The translations under genes and the position numbers were made by a program. A stretch of DNA of 32,394 nt, filler included, from an uncultured virus (IMG/VR IMGVR_UViG_3300016486_001479) (lineage: Duplodnaviria > Heunggongvirae > Uroviricota > Caudoviricetes). It is 3 parts of one record of this genome, joined end to end, with 100 filler letters (N's around TTAATTAATTAA, not from the genome) between each part and the next. Parts side by side here need not be neighbours in the genome. Positions count along the whole stretch, not along the records: positions 1 to 7,519 come from IMGVR_UViG_3300016486_001479; 2 more parts are not named here. One strand, given 5' to 3'. Each line of letters starts with the position of its first letter. Within the stretch, counting starts at the first letter, position 1. Below, in pieces: positions 111 through 29,337 of the stretch. The notes below the pieces were generated by a model. It saw nothing but the letters and a program-made list of their open reading frames with translations. It did not search any database and was not told where the DNA came from.

Positions 111-1307
111 TTAGTAACTAACGGGAAAAGGAATCACATCGTGAATCTTCTCCGCTTTCGTCAAGAACATAACCAGGCGCTCAAATCCCATTCCGAACCC
201 AGCATGTGGAACCGTCCCCCATTTACGAGTGTCTAGATACCATTGCATAGATTTTGAATCCACGCCAGCTTCTTCCATTTGAGTTTTTAGCGTATCGTGG
301 TCCTCTTCTCGAACAGAGCCTCCAATCAACTCTCCAACTTCTGGGAACACCAGGTCAAAACAAATTGCCTTTCCACCTTCTCTCTTCATATAAAATGGTT
401 TGAGGTCCTGTGGCCAGTGAGTGATAAACACAGGGCCTTTGTGGTGCGCAACTATTTCACGCTCTAGTTCAGTTCCTACATCTTCTCCATATGACAAACC
501 AAACTCATCACATACTTCTTGATATGTTATTCGAGAATACCTGGCACCAACCTCAGATTTAAGTGATTCCAAGGTTACTCCCAACTCTTTTTGATGGCCA
601 CTTTTACCAAGTGAAACAGCCACTTTGGCAATTGTCATTCTCAGCATAGACTCGGCAAAATCCATTATTTGCTCTAAGTCATAATGAGCCAGCTCAGGTT
701 CAATCATCCAGAACTCAGACAAATGCTTTCTGGTTGATGATTTTTCAGCTCGAAAACATGGACCAAAAGTGTAGATTTTCCCCAACGCCATCATACCAAC
801 TTCTCCATGAAGCTGACCCGAAACCGTTAAATGTCGTTTGAGCCATTCTGATTCGGCTGAAAACTGTTCTCCAGCACCCTCACAATCTGAGCTGGTCATA
901 ATCGGTGTGTGATATTGAGATACTGACTCCTCATGCATAAACGAGTGTAATGCAAAGCTTGTTTCGCTTCGTGCGTGCATAATAGCGCACATGCGTCGGT
1001 CTCGCCCTCGTGTCTGAGGAATCGTTCTAAGAAAGCTTGAAGAGTGAAATTTAGGCTGAACTGGGTAATCTTCTCCAGACTCGCCAAGAACCTCAATTGA
1101 AGTTGCTTTGAATTCATAATCTCCCCTGGGGGTTCTCCCATCTTCACCCTGCATTTGAATAGACGCTCCAGCAGATAACCCTAGGGAGACTTCGCAGTCT
1201 GAGTGTTTTATTGTTACTTGAAATTCCTCTTGCCCGTCCGTGACGGCTAAGAATGTTAATGCTTTGGATTTACGCACGGAACGAATCCATCCTTGTCTTG
1301 TTTTCAT
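111..1307 (-). CDS. asnS: Asparaginyl-tRNA synthetase (class IIb), compact 398 aa
   Basis: N-terminal OB-fold GWIRSVRKSKALTFLAVTDG; LTVSGQLHGE; motif 2 FRAEKSSTRKHLSEFWMIEPE; ELIGGSVREE; motif 3 PHAGFGMGFERLV; C-terminal DVIPFP. Confidence 0.96.
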   Translation of the reverse strand: MKTRQGWIRSVRKSKALTFLAVTDGQEEFQVTIKHSDCEVSLGLSAGASIQMQGEDGRTPRGDYEFKATSIEVLGESGEDYPVQPKFHSSSFLRTIPQTRGRDRRMCAIMHARSETSFALHSFMHEESVSQYHTPIMTSSDCEGAGEQFSAESEWLKRHLTVSGQLHGEVGMMALGKIYTFGPCFRAEKSSTRKHLSEFWMIEPELAHYDLEQIMDFAESMLRMTIAKVAVSLGKSGHQKELGVTLESLKSEVGARYSRITYQEVCDEFGLSYGEDVGTELEREIVAHHKGPVFITHWPQDLKPFYMKREGGKAICFDLVFPEVGELIGGSVREEDHDTLKTQMEEAGVDSKSMQWYLDTRKWGTVPHAGFGMGFERLVMFLTKAEKIHDVIPFPVSY

Positions 1308-1334
1308 TTGTTTATTTTAAAAAAGTTTGGGCAC

Positions 1335-1361
1335 AAAAAAAACCGCTTAGTAGCGGCTTTT
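1335..1361 (-). terminator. Intrinsic terminator (attenuator) between the leader peptide and asnS
   Basis: Minus strand reads AAAAG-CCGCT-ACTA-AGCGG-TTTTTTTT, a GC stem plus U8 ending 27 nt upstream of the asnS ATG and oriented to stop transcription into asnS. Confidence 0.88.
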
Positions 1362-1384
1362 GAATATCGATGTTTTTCTATCCC

Positions 1385-1462
1385 TTAATTGGACATAACA
1401 ACCTTATTCATCAGCCGATTGGCGATGTTATTAAAATTGTTATTTAGAGAAAATGTTGTCAT
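1385..1462 (-). CDS. Asn-rich leader peptide, 25 aa (MTTFSLNNNFNNIANRLMNKVVMSN)
   Basis: Hand-translated ATG(1462) to TAA(1385); 8 of 25 codons are Asn, including NNNFNN; lies directly upstream of the terminator and asnS. Confidence 0.85.
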   Translation of the reverse strand: MTTFSLNNNFNNIANRLMNKVVMSN

Positions 1463-2001
1463 TGTCTTTTGAAGTCAGTTGCAAGTATATAGATAAAATA
1501 TTACAATACGCAGAATTATTACGATTTTAACCATATAAAGTTTCACTTTATAAAGCGACGACCCATGATTCTGAAGTCTATTAAGGGAATGTGAAAAATT
1601 TCAGTGTTTCTTTTAAAATCTCTATAAGCAGCTCTCCATCTAAAGCCTTGAACTAAATGACTTACTAGTAGAGCAAAAATAGGCTCACAAAATAAGTTAT
1701 AGAAACCCATAATCCCCACCCTCCAGATTTACCGCTCATATAAAGAATGCTGTCAATTAGCCAAATCAAAATAAAAACTGCTTTGACCCAGTTTTTGCTA
1801 GGGTTTTTGTAAACTTTGAGTACTGTTTTTTTGCCACGGACTGTCATATACATAAGTTTCAACTGCCTCCTGGATTGCATTTGTATCGTCTTGGTTCAGT
1901 ATATATGTTGCTTTTTCCATATTTTTTATTTTACAATTATAATCATTTCCAATGTTGGAATAACTTACATTACATTTCTTAGCAACTCAGTAATATTTTT
2001 G

Positions 2002-17149: not shown

Positions 17150-19366
17150 ATGCAAGTTACTAAACGCAACGGCTCTAAGGAAGAAGTTAGGTTTGATAAG
17201 ATAGCTGCTAGAATTAAAAAGCAATGCTATGATTTATCGGAGGCAGTTAATTATTCAGAAGTAGCCCAAAAAGTTATTCAAGGAATATTCGACGGTGTAT
17301 CAACAACGCAATTAGATGAATTAGCAGCTCAGAAGGCAGCCGTTCTTGTTACAACACATCCAGATTACTCAAAGTTGGCAGCCAGAATAGCCATTACTTC
17401 ACTTCACAAGGAAACAAAGAAATTGTTTTCTCAGACAATAAAAGACCTCTACGAGTATGTCGACCCAATCACAAAAGCACCAGCACCGCTTATTAGCGAG
17501 GAAGCCTATGCGGTGGTGAAAAAAAACAGTGCAAGACTTAATGGGGCAATCATTCAAGACCGAGATTTTCAGCTTGACTATTTTGGATTCATGACAATGA
17601 AACGCTCGTATCTTCTTAAGACTCATGGAACACCAGCAGAAAGGCCTCAACATCTTTTTATGCGCGTTGCAGTAGGTATTCACATGGATGATATTGACAA
17701 AGCTATAGAGACTTATGATTTATTATCCATGAAGTATTTTACTCATGCAACACCTACATTGTTTAATGCAGGGACTCCAAAACCGCAAATGTCTTCCTGT
17801 TTCCTGTTAACGATGAAAGATGATTCTATTGATGGAATATATGACACTTTAAAGCAGTGTGCATTGATTTCACAATCAGCTGGAGGGATAGGGTTGAGCA
17901 TTCACAACATAAGAGCCAAAGGCTCTTATATTAAAGGAACCAACGGAACCTCTAATGGAATTGTTCCAATGCTTAGAAACTTTAACGACACAGCTCGTTA
18001 TGTTGACCAGGGTGGAGGAAAACGAAAAGGTTCTTTTGCAATCTACTTAGAGCCTTGGCATGCAGACATACGCGAGTTTCTTAATTTGAAAAAGAACACA
18101 GGAAAAGAAGAGATGCGTGCGAGAGATTTGTTTTACGCGATGTGGATTCCAGACTTGTTTATGAAACGAGTTGATGAAGGCGCAAGCTGGACTTTAATGG
18201 ACCCTAACGAGTGCCCTGGGCTTTCAGACTGCTATGGAGATGACTTTGAGAAGTTGTACACCAAATATGAGAGGCAAGGCAAAGGGCGTGAGACAATCCC
18301 TGCTCAAGACATTTGGTTCAAGATTCTTGAATCTCAAATTGAAACAGGAACTCCATACATGCTTTACAAGGATGCCGCTAACCATAAATCTAATCAAAAG
18401 CACTTGGGAACAATCAAGTCCTCTAATCTCTGTACAGAAATTATGGAGTACACTTCTCCAGATGAAGTAGCTGTTTGTAATCTTGCATCTATTGCGTTGC
18501 CAATGTATTTGAAGCAAACAAACACAGCTAAGACCCCAAGCAAGAAAGTGTACGAGTTTGATTTTGATAAGCTATATGAGGTTACAAAGGTGGTCACAAA
18601 AAACCTTAACAAGGTTATCGACCGAAATTTCTACCCAGTTGTGGAGGCTAAGAAATCAAACCTACGTCACAGACCAATTGGCATTGGTGTTCAAGGTTTA
18701 GCCGATGTGTTCGCTAAGATGCACGTGGCATTCGATTCGGAGGTAGCAAAGCAACTTAATAGGGAAATCTTCGAAATGATTTACTTCGCTTCTATGGAGG
18801 CCTCTATGGAGGAAGCTATGAAAGATGGAGCATATGAAACGTTCCCAGGCTCAGACCTAAGCAAAGGCATTTTCCAGTTTGATTACTGGGAAGAGTCTCA
18901 GCTCTCACCGAATCTAAATTTGGACTGGAATGGTCTAAAGGACAAAGTGAAAGAGTTTGGAGCTAGAAACTCTCTGCTGTTGGCTCCAATGCCTACAGCA
19001 AGTTGTCAAGTAATTGACACTGAGTTCTTTAGCCAAGGAAAAGTGAATAATTTCAAATCTATTTTAGAACAAAGTGGAATTGATTGGAAAACTATTGAGT
19101 CGGTTGATGCTCCACATTGGATTACTCTTAAAGAGTCAGTTATTGTTGACACGATGAATGGAGAGGTTGAAACTGATAAGATGTACTACAATGGGCATAA
19201 GCAGGTCTACCATATAGAAATGGAAGATGGGTCTACAATGGAGGCTACGGGAAATCATAGATTTCTTGTGAGTCGAACTACAGGAGATGAGTGGGTTTAT
19301 GTAAATGAGTTAAAAGAAGACGATGATATTCTAACTATTAAATGTGAAGAACTAATTGAAAACTAA
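17150..19366 (+). CDS. nrdA: Ribonucleotide reductase alpha, N-terminal part (618 aa) fused to split intein N-fragment (120 aa)
   Basis: ATP cone [21 protein letters not shown] and VCNLAS; NrdA similarity stops at LLAPMPTAS, followed by CQVIDTEF (block A) and ATGNHRFL (block B). Confidence 0.95.
19004..19363 (+). mobile_element. Split intein N-fragment
   Basis: Starts with Cys immediately after PTAS; TxNH block [14 protein letters not shown] end typical of N-inteins; acidic tail, then stop. Confidence 0.9.
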
Positions 19367-25575: not shown

Positions 25576-26146
25576 ATGCAAAAAGAAAGAGAAAGTAGCT
25601 ATTATAAGGAATCAGTTTCCGTAAAAAGCTATTACAAAGACATTAAAAAGATAGAAGTCCTTAGTGGGGATGACCAAGTTAAACTGGCTGTCAAGGCTAA
25701 GGCTGGAGACGAGAAAGCATTTCATGACTTAACAAAGACTAATTTGAGATTTGTTATTTCTGTGGCAAAAGAATATCTATACAGCGGACTTCCTCTGGAG
25801 GATTTAATTTCAGAGGGTAATATCGGCCTTATGGAAGCTGTTAGCAGGTTTGATGAGACAAAGGGTTTTAAGTTTATTTCCTACGCCGTATGGTGGATTC
25901 GCCACGCACTTATAAAAGCGGTAAACGACCACTCTGGGAACATCAGGCTCCCTGTAAATCGAATCAACTCCATCAACAAGATTGTAAAAACAAAAGAAAA
26001 GCTTTACCAACGTTTAGGTCGAGAGCCTTCTGATGAAGAAATCTTAGCCGAGATAGATGAAATTACAGAAAGCGATATTAAAAGCTTTAACATCAATGGA
26101 AACTTCGAAGTTTCTATTGATGACCAGATAAAATCTGACTCACAAA
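25576..26146 (+). CDS. rpoD: RpoD/SigA-family sigma70 factor lacking region 1.1 (3' truncated at gap)
   Basis: NLRFVISVAKEY, DLISEGNIGLMEAVSRFD, GFKFISYAVWWIR, IRLPVN and LGREPS. Confidence 0.92.
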
Positions 26147-27030
26147 NNNNNNNNNNNNNNNNNNNNNNNNNNNNNNNNNNNNNNNNNNNNNNNNNNNNNN
26201 NNNNNNNNNNNNNNNNNNNNNNNNNNNNNNNNNNNNNNNNNNNNNNNNNNNNNNNNNNNNNNNNNNNNNNNNNNNNNNNNNNNNNNNNNNNNNNNNNNNN
26301 NNNNNNNNNNNNNNNNNNNNNNNNNNNNNNNNNNNNNNNNNNNNNNNNNNNNNNNNNNNNNNNNNNNNNNNNNNNNNNNNNNNNNNNNNNNNNNNNNNNN
26401 NNNNNNNNNNNNNNNNNNNNNNNNNNNNNNNNNNNNNNNNNNNNNNNNNNNNNNNNNNNNNNNNNNNNNNNNNNNNNNNNNNNNNNNNNNNNNNNNNNNN
26501 NNNNNNNNNNNNNNNNNNNNNNNNNNNNNNNNNNNNNNNNNNNNNNNNNNNNNNNNNNNNNNNNNNNNNNNNNNNNNNNNNNNNNNNNNNNNNNNNNNNN
26601 NNNNNNNNNNNNNNNNNNNNNNNNNNNNNNNNNNNNNNNNNNNNNNNNNNNNNNNNNNNNNNNNNNNNNNNNNNNNNNNNNNNNNNNNNNNNNNNNNNNN
26701 NNNNNNNNNNNNNNNNNNNNNNNNNNNNNNNNNNNNNNNNNNNNNNNNNNNNNNNNNNNNNNNNNNNNNNNNNNNNNNNNNNNNNNNNNNNNNNNNNNNN
26801 NNNNNNNNNNNNNNNNNNNNNNNNNNNNNNNNNNNNNNNNNNNNNNNNNNNNNNNNNNNNNNNNNNNNNNNNNNNNNNNNNNNNNNNNNNNNNNNNNNNN
26901 NNNTTGATTTTCAAGAAGAAACAGTTGAATTATGGAGTCCTCTTGATTTAGAAGCGAGGAGAAAAATGATTGAAGAATCATGGTTATAATTCCAAAAAAA
27001 GTTATACTTTTGGATTATAAATCAAAAATC

Positions 27031-27862
27031 ATGGATACATTGAATTTACAGCTCACAAAGTCCATCGTATTCATTAAGGCGCATACGACAGGGTTAAAGC
27101 CGAATTTGGATAGGATTGTACAACTCACAATCACTCGATACAACCCAGACGGCACACAAAAGACAGGGACAAGACTAATTAACCCCGAAATGCCCATCCC
27201 AGAGGAGGCATCAAGTAGGAACGGCATCACCGATGATATAGTGAGCAGTCAACCCACATTTTTCAGCATAGCTCAAAATCTTCACCGCTTTATTGGCGAT
27301 GCAGACATCGCGGGGGTTCAATGTTGAATTCGACCTCAACTTTTTAATGGAAGAGTTTGCAAGAGCAGGCCTTGCGTTTTCTTGTTCAGACCGAAACATC
27401 GTAGACCTACAGTCTATGTATCACCAGATATCTCCAAGAGACTTCATCCAGGCATCAGCGCAATTTGCGAATCAAGATTTCATGAGAGGAGCTCCGATTG
27501 GTAGCGAGGCCCACACCGTGAACTATGTCAAAATCCTTAATGGGATGATTGATAAACATCAAGGTCAAATAATTACAGACAAAAACGGAGTTGAAAAGTC
27601 ATTCAACAACAACACATCATCTATTTCTGAGACATTCGGAAAAGGAAAAGGCGCAGTTGATATGAAAGGGCAGCTTGTAAAAGACGACAGCGGAAAAATC
27701 AACCTGAACTTTGGAAAGTATAAAGGAAGACCATTGGATGAAATCGTTACAACAGATATGGGGTATATCACGTGGATGATAAATTCAGAAAAAACTCCTA
27801 GAGACACAAAAAACATCATTGAGAGTTTCATTAAAAAAATGAACACTCCTCAACCTCAATAA
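27031..27862 (+). CDS. DEDDh/DnaQ-like exonuclease fold with degenerate catalytic motifs and C-terminal FGKYKG domain; frameshift at G5 27312-27316
   Basis: TTGL..DRIVQL..LINPEMPIPEEAS..NGITD; IAG|FNVEFDL joins two ORFs if one G is removed; LNFGKYKG..GYITWM. Confidence 0.8.
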
Positions 27863-27873
27863 CAAACTAGAGA

Positions 27874-29337
27874 ATGGCAAAAAAGCAAAAAGGAAGAGAC
27901 CTTAGCCAAATTGACATTTTCGACGAGATTCACGACAGACAACTTACAGAAGAGCAAAGGACATTTATTGAGTTCAAAGGAAAAGAGTCTATTGTCTTAT
28001 CTGCAGTTGCAGGAAGCGGTAAAACTTTTTCCTGTGTTGAACGACTAAAAAATTTAATTAGACGCGGGGTTGACCCATCTAGAATTATCTTTTTCTCTTT
28101 TACAAAGGCTGCGACCGAAGAATTAAAATCGAGAATTGGAAATGACCAAATTAAAATAACAACAATTCACTCATTCTGCTTCCATATCCTTAATAAGGCT
28201 GGCAAATGGAAAGATGTAACAAGCTGGTTTGACTTTGTCAAATGGTATAAAGAACAATTTTCTCCACCAAGACACGCATCGTCGGAAGAGAAAGAAGAGT
28301 TTTACACAAATATCAGTGAAATGTACACCAGTGCAGATGTTATTTCGTCTAAAATAGCTGCCTACAAGCTTATGCAGGCCGAAGGTGAAAAGTCTGCTTT
28401 TCCAAACTTTCTCTTGGAGTACGAAAGGTTTCAGAGAGAAACTTACGCTCGCGATTTCTCAGACATGTTGATAGAGGTTGATAAACTTTTCAAGGATGAT
28501 AAATGGCTTAAAATGTTCAAAGGTAAGTATGATTATATTTTTGTGGACGAGTTCCAAGACACATCTGCCTTGCAGTTAAGGGTTCTTTTATCTTTAAACG
28601 CTCGATACTACTACTTAATTGGAGACATATTTCAGTCAATATACGGATACTCTGGAGCAAACGCGAATCGATTGATTAAAATGCTCTCAGATAGGCGCAA
28701 ATCAAAAGAAATGACGCTGACAGTTAACTTTAGAAGTGACATTGAAATCGTTAATAATTCAAACTCGTATTCAGAATTAGAAGCACAGCCCAATTCCCCA
28801 ATGCCTGGAGAAGTGGATTACATCATTAGAACTAGCACTCAAGAATTGATAACAATTCTTGATAATTCAAGAGAGTGCGCCGTCCTGGTTCGAACTAACG
28901 CAGTGATTCGACAATTAGAAAAGAAGCTACTGGTGGAAAGGTACCCAATGAGGTATGAAAATTATCTCACAAAAAAAGATTTGGATGATATGAAAAAAAA
29001 CAAATCAAATCCTGTTTTAGATAGAAAAGTGAAAGATATGCAAAGTCACTTTGACTCTCCACAAGAGCTTATAGCGTTCATAAAAATCAACGAAGATTCT
29101 AAAAAATTTATTACTACCATTCATAAATCAAAAGGAAGAGAGTTTGAAGACGTAGTAGTGGTTAACTCATGTGCACCAGAGATATTAATAGACAATGGCT
29201 TCGTCCTTCCAAAAAAAGAGCTCAAGAAAGTAAGTTTCAATTATGATGCCAAAGACAGAGAGGCACAGAATATTCATTATGTCGCAGTAACAAGAGCTAA
29301 GCACAAGCTTTTTTATATGTTATGGGGAATCATGTGA
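27874..29337 (+). CDS. Compact UvrD/Rep-family SF1 helicase
   Basis: AVAGSGKT, TIHSF, VDEFQD, IGDIFQSIYGYSGA, NFRS, LVRTN, TIHKSKGREF and YVAVTRAK. Confidence 0.95.
   Translation: MAKKQKGRDLSQIDIFDEIHDRQLTEEQRTFIEFKGKESIVLSAVAGSGKTFSCVERLKNLIRRGVDPSRIIFFSFTKAATEELKSRIGNDQIKITTIHSFCFHILNKAGKWKDVTSWFDFVKWYKEQFSPPRHASSEEKEEFYTNISEMYTSADVISSKIAAYKLMQAEGEKSAFPNFLLEYERFQRETYARDFSDMLIEVDKLFKDDKWLKMFKGKYDYIFVDEFQDTSALQLRVLLSLNARYYYLIGDIFQSIYGYSGANANRLIKMLSDRRKSKEMTLTVNFRSDIEIVNNSNSYSELEAQPNSPMPGEVDYIIRTSTQELITILDNSRECAVLVRTNAVIRQLEKKLLVERYPMRYENYLTKKDLDDMKKNKSNPVLDRKVKDMQSHFDSPQELIAFIKINEDSKKFITTIHKSKGREFEDVVVVNSCAPEILIDNGFVLPKKELKKVSFNYDAKDREAQNIHYVAVTRAKHKLFYMLWGIM

Follow-up and report, generated by a model that had tools for sequence, protein, structure and literature searches.

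The leader region and the asnS gene

We analysed a 32,394-nucleotide stretch of DNA (the window: three parts of one record, joined by filler letters) from an uncultured tailed virus (IMG/VR IMGVR_UViG_3300016486_001479). In it, a putative leader-peptide attenuator lies upstream of asnS, the phage's gene for asparagine--tRNA ligase (AsnRS). asnS occupies positions 111..1307 on the minus strand and encodes a protein of 398 aa. The product scored 370.9 bits against the equivalog model TIGR00457 (cut-off 342.6 bits) and contains the Pfam domain tRNA-synt_2 and an OB anticodon domain. On the same strand, 5' of asnS, is a small open reading frame (ORF) of 25 codons, eight of them for Asn (MTTFSLNNNFNNIANRLMNKVVMSN; 1462..1385). 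The Asn codons are at positions 7, 8, 9, 11, 12, 15, 19 and 25, and the ORF ends with a TAA (1387-1385), 75 nt from the asnS ATG. Five of the eight fall within the six consecutive codons 7-12 (AAU AAC AAU UUU AAU AAC; 1427..1444). This is the putative regulatory cluster, and homologous runs are present in five relatives described below.

We found that small ORFs this dense in Asn are rare in the phage. We counted ATG ORFs of 8-40 codons on both strands and scored those with at least 5 Asn codons among 6 consecutive codons. Besides the window, we used a 141-kb record of the same phage (G001, which has 89% of the window's words in common with it) and a 132-kb record of a different phage (G002). 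The threshold was reached by 1 of 417 ORFs in the window, 1 of 2157 in G001 and 1 of 2858 in G002. In each case the ORF was the one directly 5' of asnS.

The reading frame behind the leader TAA is open for a further 26 codons, and the TGA that closes it shares bases with the asnS ATG (ATGA; 1304-1387, minus strand). The same phage also has a tRNA with anticodon UUA, of the ochre-suppressor type (66 bits; L181:182-254, minus strand, which is G001:C1:44382-44453). We saw no sign of recoding, and ORF cover under code 11 was 74-81%.

A predicted intrinsic terminator separates the leader from asnS (1335..1361, minus strand). It has five G/C-rich pairs with an A-U extension, a loop of ACUA and a tail of eight U's, and the hairpin has a calculated energy of -10.8 kcal/mol. 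Its 5' arm is AAAAGCCGCU (1361-1352), the loop is at 1351-1348, the 3' arm is AGCGG plus U's (1347-1339), and the T8 tract is at 1342-1335. The sequence UAUUCAAAAGCCGCU-ACUA-AGCGGUUUUUUUU starts 18 nt beyond the leader TAA, and the terminator is 25 nt from the asnS ATG (1307). A simple consensus scan reported a stem on the plus strand only (1343-1356). Our own scan and both folds placed the terminator on the minus strand, with the T8 tail, and the U-tract of the hairpin is far better on that strand than on the plus strand.

The leader can be folded into two mutually exclusive arrangements. The 181-nt region folds with z = -3.45 relative to shuffled sequences. In the minimum free energy (MFE) fold, AUAACAAUUUUA (1432..1443, minus strand), which overlaps the Asn codons, is the 5' strand of an outer, anti-antiterminator helix. 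The 3' strand, UAAGGUUGUUAU (1395..1406, minus strand), is complementary to the Asn-codon run. Within this 12-bp helix, the segment CAUCGCC (1421..1427, minus strand; "region 1"), 0-6 nt past Asn codon 12, pairs with GGCUGAUG in a hairpin of -6.8 kcal/mol. Together the outer helix and the inner hairpin amount to -15.6 kcal/mol. In the alternative arrangement, the antiterminator strand CGGCUGAUGAAUA (1405..1417, minus strand; "region 2") pairs with UAUUCAAAAGCCG (1354..1366, minus strand), the last 8 nt of which lie within the terminator 5' arm. This duplex (-14.0 kcal/mol) has 5 bp of CGGCU:AGCCG, a 2x2 internal loop and 6 bp of UGAAUA:UAUUCA, and was matched by 24 of 2000 dinucleotide shuffles. 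With the flanking helix included, the complementarity beats 98.8% of shuffles. The entire antiterminator structure has a calculated energy of -19.5 kcal/mol, compared with -10.8 kcal/mol for the terminator hairpin.

We modelled the effect of a ribosome on the balance between the two arrangements. With no ribosome, the terminator state (-32.7 kcal/mol) was favored over the antiterminator state (-22.4 kcal/mol) by about 10 kcal/mol. With a ribosome on Asn codon 11, the two states were within about 1 kcal/mol of each other (-21.1 and -20.0 kcal/mol, respectively).

These elements had largely been described in an earlier note on this DNA. The note reported a 25-codon ORF with 8 Asn codons and a cluster at codons 7-12, and both the coordinates and the count of ORF density agree with it. 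The GC-stem/U8 terminator that it placed just 5' of asnS is present at 1361-1335 on the minus strand, by the scan and by both folds. Complementarity between CGGCU (1417-1413) and AGCCG (1358-1354), which it offered as a candidate antiterminator, was verified, and the antiterminator is longer than those 5 bp. The local GCC-AAUC-GGC hairpin that it proposed is part of both MFE folds. It also advised folding the region with and without a ribosome on codons 7-12. When the ribosome was stalled there, the antiterminator appeared in the MFE fold of a transcript cut before the terminator 3' arm.

We found that the enzyme behind the leader contains no Asn. None of the 398 residues of the window AsnRS is Asn, compared to a background of 4.7% in window ORFs of at least 150 aa and 5.3% in those of G001. 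Among ORFs of this length, only that of AsnRS is Asn-free in the window, in G001 and in G002. In the five leader-bearing relatives the enzyme has 0, 0, 0, 1 and 0 Asn. The counts are 1-4 in leaderless members of the same clade, 10-20 in four cellular outgroups, and 19 and 2 in two viral outgroups. A gene that is switched on when a given aminoacyl-tRNA is missing would be well served by an enzyme whose own synthesis does not require that aminoacyl-tRNA. The Asn-free AsnRS is independent support for an attenuator.

Low Asn content was also seen outside the window's clade. On viral contigs, the AsnRS of L035, L049 and L073 has no Asn and that of L021/L022 has one. Taking these together with L029 and L034/L076, these viral enzymes outside the clade have 0-2 Asn and no Asn leader. 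From these sequences, cognate depletion among phage AsnRS seems to be wider than the attenuator. The AsnRS of A+T-rich giant-virus bins contains 5-11% Asn.

Leaders in related phages

Five diverged phage asnS loci, with AsnRS 52-54% identical to that of the window, have an Asn-run leader, an antiterminator and a terminator of their own. The leaders are MKSLSINNNNHNRKP (L005), MITMTINNNNNNELTGNV (L080), MKTMKTMTINNRNELTDNV (L081), METKLNNNNNLTDKV (L082) and MKQVSINNNNSNRLV (L083). They contain runs of 3 to 6 Asn codons, with 4-7 Asn codons per leader, and their terminators are 24-44 nt from asnS. Conservation of the Asn codons in homologous leaders had been set beforehand as a refutation test; the codons are kept in these five diverged relatives.

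Pairing potential is also conserved. In the relatives, the TGA stop of the leader is part of a strand, GUCUGAU(G) or CCUGAC, with complementarity to the loop-proximal portion of the terminator 5' arm. In alignment A7, which contains five sequences (two of them close kin) and has little statistical power, 33 of the 35 antiterminator cells are paired, compared to 17-34% with the partner slid. Two of these pairs changed on both sides and one changed to G-U. For the terminator in the same alignment, all 54 cells are paired and four pairs are compensatory. Four further aligned copies of the window's version (L001-L004) are identical from leader to terminator and yield no covariation. The AsnRS of L001-L004, L078 and L079 is 100% identical to that of the window.

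Putative promoter sequences were found close to the leaders. An exact TATATTTG box is located 3-5 nt 5' of the leader ATG in L005, L081 and L082. The Bacteroidota -7 box TAnnTTTG occurs upstream of G002 ORFs with a 2.4-fold enrichment that peaks exactly 4 nt 5' of the ATG, and it is weakly enriched in G001. Going by these positions, the leader mRNA of the relatives is probably almost leaderless. In the window, TATACTTG (1482..1489, minus strand), 19 nt 5' of the leader ATG, is a weak candidate promoter with one mismatch to the box. According to a passage in PMC7641319, both Flavobacterium and Bacteroides conserve the -7 box TAnnTTTG.

A single clade (100/100) contains the phage AsnRS and excludes cellular and other viral AsnRS. 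Within it, the leader is found at three positions: in the window alone, in L005, and in L080-L083. Because the leaders align (alignment A4), common ancestry with several losses is the simplest reading of the sequences.

We scanned upstream of 57 of 72 viral asnS loci; the other 15 were duplicates or partial matches, or had too little upstream DNA. An Asn-dense ORF with a terminator no more than 60 nt from asnS was found only in the window's copy and in L020 (the same as L005). L015 reached 4 Asn in 6 codons and had no terminator, and the remaining 54 loci reached at most 3. Two further viral scans, with the AsnRS of L083 and of L082, gave no additional leader-bearing loci. A search of the "phages" collection gave two distant matches and nothing informative on the leader.

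These scans bear on a simple alternative, in which the hairpin and U8 serve the upstream gene as a normal terminator and the Asn-rich ORF simply reflects the high A+T content of the intergenic DNA. As in a two-way terminator, the hairpin is flanked by an A-tract and, on its other side, by a T-tract, and the consensus scan had placed it on the plus strand. The phage does use such terminators at gene ends (15 in the scan of G001, two of which overlap at one site). However, most of the others are 11-41 nt after a gene end, whereas ~180 nt separate this one from the upstream ORF and 25 nt separate it from asnS. Among the 55 other viral loci examined, not one combines a terminator with 5 or more Asn in 6 codons. 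Furthermore, none of 79 mixed cellular asnS loci (L128 was left out as incomplete) has an upstream ORF (uORF) with 4 or more Asn in 6 codons. The most Asn-dense small ORF precedes asnS in both phage records, and the covariation in the relatives also speaks against an ordinary terminator. We regard this alternative as extremely unlikely.

We found that cognate leaders also precede other synthetase genes. The second element was found by scanning G002 for terminators near gene starts, and further elements by checking upstream of every class I synthetase-like ORF in G002, G156 and G157. A Gln leader (MIIISIYKNMSQTQTHIQQLQQQFDTKG) lies 5' of a HAD gene and glnS (TIGR00440, 612 bits). Two Ile leaders (MRSTCIIIIHRLTPWIFQW and MNFNSIIIIRKSTPWYKPIG) lie 5' of ileS (TIGR00392, 691 and 696 bits), two Val leaders (MNNKSENNLVVVTDIVKMLV and MKHINSNNVVVVNRNPVC) 5' of short valS-like genes, and a Leu leader (MITTMNTNLLLLADS) 5' of a short leuS-like gene. 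The six sites are L191:350-495 (plus strand), L195 upstream of 17271 (minus strand), L194 upstream of 8038 (plus strand), and L228, L230 and L232 upstream of genes at 1426, 1465 and 1510. The leaders belong to two related huge phages, and each has an antiterminator and a terminator. Including the six Asn leaders, the codons of the leader match the gene behind it in 12 of 12 cases. The architecture of a leader-peptide attenuator, which the earlier note had recognized at a single locus, is conserved in the five relatives and has sister leaders, each cognate to its gene, before other synthetase genes.

Several of the enzymes behind these leaders resemble AsnRS in composition. Ile, with a background of 7-7.8%, is absent from both IleRS (738 and 742 aa). 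Val is absent from both ValRS-like proteins (442 and 509 aa), and GlnRS has one Gln in 522 aa.

The ValRS-like and LeuRS-like proteins (L194:8038-9366, L194:13443-14723, L230:1465-2994 and L232:1510-2775) are short (421-509 aa) and score below the NCBIfam cut-offs. From their sequences, they appear to be without an editing domain.

We modelled ribosome position in all 12 elements, using transcripts cut just before the terminator 3' arm with 31 nt masked by the ribosome. Placing the A site on the run codons gave an MFE fold with the antiterminator in 12 of 12 elements. With the ribosome on the stop codon, the antiterminator was absent in 11 of 12; the exception was the window. With no ribosome, the leaders of L005, L081 and L083, both Ile leaders and both Val leaders paired the codon run with a downstream segment, and the terminator arm was free. 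L082, L083 and the Ile and Val leaders have run-complementary segments analogous to UAAGGUUGUUAU of the window. In every one of the 12 elements, the antiterminator strand lies 8-18 nt from the last run codon, approximately the reach of a stalled ribosome. For 11 of the 12, at least 94% of dinucleotide shuffles give a weaker complementarity between the antiterminator strand and the terminator.

The leaders for different amino acids may be related to each other. A covariance model of the Asn leaders scored the Val leader of G156 (L230:1315-1426, plus strand) at 34.4 bits. This leader has kept five Asn codons around its VVVV run, and its AACCCAUCAGAC terminator is common to the Asn leaders. The sequence suggests that one attenuator scaffold has been re-used, with the codon run converted from one amino acid to another.

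The phage, its host and the search for a cellular origin

The asnS locus is surrounded by DNA of a large tailed phage, with genes for a T4-type portal, terminase, sheath, baseplate, PolIII alpha, RNR, a sigma-70-like protein and many tRNAs. A 447-kb metagenome contig (L079) carries an AsnRS 100% identical to that of the window. ARAGORN found no tRNA in the window, and none of the 15 tRNA matches in G001 (141 kb) is for Asn. A BT4734-like domain, a T9SS sorting domain in G002 and the -7 box TAnnTTTG are hints of Bacteroidota. Based on these sequence features, the phage lineage probably infects Bacteroidota.

We looked for the leader in cellular genomes. The earlier note had suggested that Asn-rich uORFs be sought before asnS in related phages and in Bacteroidota. 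They are present in related phages (the five diverged loci) and absent from the cellular loci examined: none of 30 asnS loci from the phylum of G003, a Cytophagales metagenome-assembled genome, has an Asn leader, six of the 30 being doubtful, with a longest ORF that is not asnS-sized. None of 30 aspS loci from the same phylum has an ATG ORF with 4 or more Asn in 6 codons within 1.5 kb. Among 30 ileS loci of that phylum there was one 38-codon ORF with IIII and nothing leader-like.

The covariance model of the Asn leaders had one match in 151 cellular genomes, a His leader before hisG. This leader (MNFIQLHHHHSHTSPQARWK, with the run HHHHSH; L294:1558-1620, minus strand) is followed by a terminator, AAACCCGUCUG...CAGACGGGUUUUUU, and then by hisG (597-1454, minus strand). 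It is from a cellular genome of the same phylum as G003. In the sample of sequences examined, the design is of the host's kind and its use before synthetase genes is the phages' own.

Other features of the phage were observed in passing. The RNR large subunit, the T4-type portal and the pieces of PolIII alpha have matches to intein-splicing domains (window 17150-19366, plus strand; L188:17057-19693, minus strand; L188:11384-13006, minus strand), and PolIII alpha is divided over two ORFs. Genes for a Cas3-like HD helicase, a Ro60/TROVE protein and RNA ligases are also present in G001. The window and G001 are colinear for ~15 kb, after which G001 is offset by ~1.1 kb and later by ~39 kb, indicating large insertions or rearrangements between the assemblies. 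At window positions ~1826, 1803, 1796 and 1679 there are four differences in homopolymer length from the IMG/VR copy L001. They split a 126-aa ORF, intact in L001, into three small window ORFs and are probably assembly errors. At 26001-28000 the G+C content of the window falls to 0.24, compared to 0.36-0.41 elsewhere, around the end of the sigma-70-like gene (25576-26907).

The proposed mechanism and its relation to known systems

We propose that the element attenuates transcription of the phage's own asnS in a ribosome-dependent manner, with its leader peptide as the sensor of Asn-tRNA(Asn) supply. We put the probability of this reading at roughly 0.8. Its basis is what was observed: the sequence elements, their conservation and covariation in the relatives, the cognate match of codons and genes, and the Asn-free enzyme. 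Translation of the leader, stalling, a kinetic choice between structures and the physiological trigger are what we infer.

In the proposed mechanism, transcription would begin upstream of the leader, and a ribosome would translate the 25 codons. When Asn-tRNA is plentiful, the ribosome would pass the Asn cluster and the antiterminator strand and reach the TAA. CGGCUGAUG would then re-pair locally with CAUCGCC, or the ribosome in between would keep the strand from its distal partner. The GC hairpin and U8 would form, and RNA polymerase would stop 25 nt 5' of asnS. When Asn-tRNA is scarce, the ribosome would stall on codons 7-12, covering the Asn-run helix and CAUCGCC and leaving CGGCUGAUGAAUA free to pair with UAUUCAAAAGCCG as it emerges. 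Since this pairing occupies the terminator 5' arm, polymerase would read into asnS. The asnS mRNA has no Asn codon and so should be translatable even during a shortage of Asn-tRNA.

Several results weigh against this reading, and some of them concern the window copy itself. The full-length equilibrium (MFE) fold predicts the terminator in every ribosome state, so the switch must be kinetic. By analogy with classical attenuators, the structure formed first would hold while polymerase crosses the U-tract. The promoter-like box of the window has a mismatch. Only 5 bp of the window antiterminator overlap the terminator arm, and taken alone these are no better than shuffles (296/1000). All copies of the window's own version are identical, so there is no covariation among them. 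The window copy also differs from the five relatives by an insertion of four bases (TCGC in alignment A4), which shifts its frame relative to the conserved CUGA. The leader ORF therefore bypasses the TGA within GGCUGAUG and ends at a TAA located 18 nt beyond the antiterminator strand. A ribosome at this stop leaves the antiterminator unblocked in the simple mask model.

These deviations raise the possibility that the window copy is a decayed or rewired descendant. In that case the 4-nt insertion moved the stop, and transcription would terminate or read through constitutively, with no sensing of Asn. The displaced CUGA, the unmasked antiterminator strand and the 5-bp core overlap with the terminator arm are as expected from decay. 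However, the same insertion creates CAUCGCC, which is able to pair with GGCUGAUG in a trp-like 1:2 hairpin. Moreover, the eight Asn codons are kept, the region from leader to terminator is identical in L001-L004, and the enzyme, identical in L001-L004, L078 and L079, is intact and Asn-free. It is also unlikely that a helix would close around a ribosome parked between its strands. We consider decay unlikely. In the folding model, the window copy is instead a variant of the attenuator with an extra local hairpin that would act as the trp region 1:2. With a ribosome at the TAA, this local hairpin would probably re-form, and the antiterminator helix would probably not close around a ribosome between its strands.

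Other results that weigh against an Asn-sensing attenuator come from the related phages. The leader is not universal in the clade: L009, L010/L011, L012, L014 and L016 have none. The clade member L015 has only an Asn-rich uORF that overlaps the asnS start, without a terminator. No leader precedes the leuS-like genes of G002 and G157, and Leu is present at a normal level in the LeuRS-like proteins (20-23 Leu).

The arrangement in L015 might also indicate that the leader acts on translation of asnS or on mRNA stability, by ribosome delivery, by re-initiation or through a protective 3' hairpin on a short RNA, and not by conditional termination. Bacteroidota-type mRNAs do without Shine-Dalgarno pairing, which is compatible with such a role. 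A passage in PMC4833913 proposes that leader genes raise the translation of the downstream gene. In the window, however, U8 directly follows a GC stem, the signature of intrinsic termination, and 75 nt separate the leader stop from the asnS ATG. A purely translational model does not call for the conservation and covariation seen in the strand that complements the terminator 5' arm. We find an effect on translation or stability alone very unlikely.

Taking these points together, we suggest that the element is probably a real, functional attenuator and that the phage probably makes AsnRS just when charged asparagine tRNA runs out. With less confidence, we favor a broader view, that this lineage of huge phages runs a self-contained emergency charging system. 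In it, Asn, Gln, Ile and Val synthetases that are (almost) without their own residue would each be gated by a leader, and the system would detect and rebuild a single failed charging reaction.

Why huge phages carry aminoacyl-tRNA synthetases is an open question, and the regulation and the composition of the enzymes both suggest one answer to it. The synthetases would be made on demand when one charged tRNA is missing, and would be built so that the shortage cannot block their own synthesis. If this is true, phage-encoded synthetases gain a concrete, testable role. One attenuator scaffold would serve different synthetases through different codon runs, and the set would be the first viral regulon of cognate attenuators to be described. 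Our search of the literature, with subscription-only papers outside its scope, found nothing on Asn-codon attenuators, attenuators of phage synthetases or cognate-free phage synthetases.

We compared the element with known RNA families. At the gathering level, no Rfam family was found in the window. At E values up to 10, the only matches over the terminator were sub-threshold ones to Trp, Leu and Phe leaders. Membership in Trp_leader (RF00513) was rejected, as the match (1333-1406, same strand, E = 0.0096) scored 24.6 bits and the gathering score is 41. A T-box leader was also rejected, with no Rfam match at the gathering threshold in the window and none among the six weak matches in 1200-1700. 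T-box riboswitches of Firmicutes synthetase genes have the same goal, to turn on the synthetase when its tRNA is uncharged, and also choose between terminator and antiterminator. However, a T-box binds the tRNA directly, without translation.

The His leader of L294 is a cellular element that resembles the phage leaders. Its arrangement and its AAACCC...GGGUUUUUU style of terminator are common with the phage leaders. It differs in that it is cellular, has His codons and precedes a biosynthetic operon.

The window copy is also like the trp attenuator (trpL). The regulatory codons come just before region 1, and the alternative 1:2, 2:3 and 3:4 pairings and a U-tract follow. In contrast to trpL, the codons of the window leader are for Asn and not Trp, and the gene controlled is a synthetase and not a biosynthetic operon. 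In the relatives, unlike trpL, the leader stop is inside the antiterminator strand and the leader ATG is 3-5 nt after a -7 box.

Attenuators of synthetase genes are a functional parallel. In E. coli, pheM is the leader of the pheST operon. A passage in PMC1262725 lists classical attenuators before pheST in gamma-proteobacteria and, as predictions, before trpS and leuS in Streptomyces. The phage element is like these in its place before a synthetase gene, in having cognate codons in the leader and in a predicted choice between antiterminator and terminator. It differs from them in that its amino acid is Asn and in that it is carried by a phage, is one of a set for several synthetases in one genome, and precedes an enzyme without its own amino acid. 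Leader-peptide attenuation before synthetase genes is known, and the sensing of Asn and carriage by a virus would be an extension of it.

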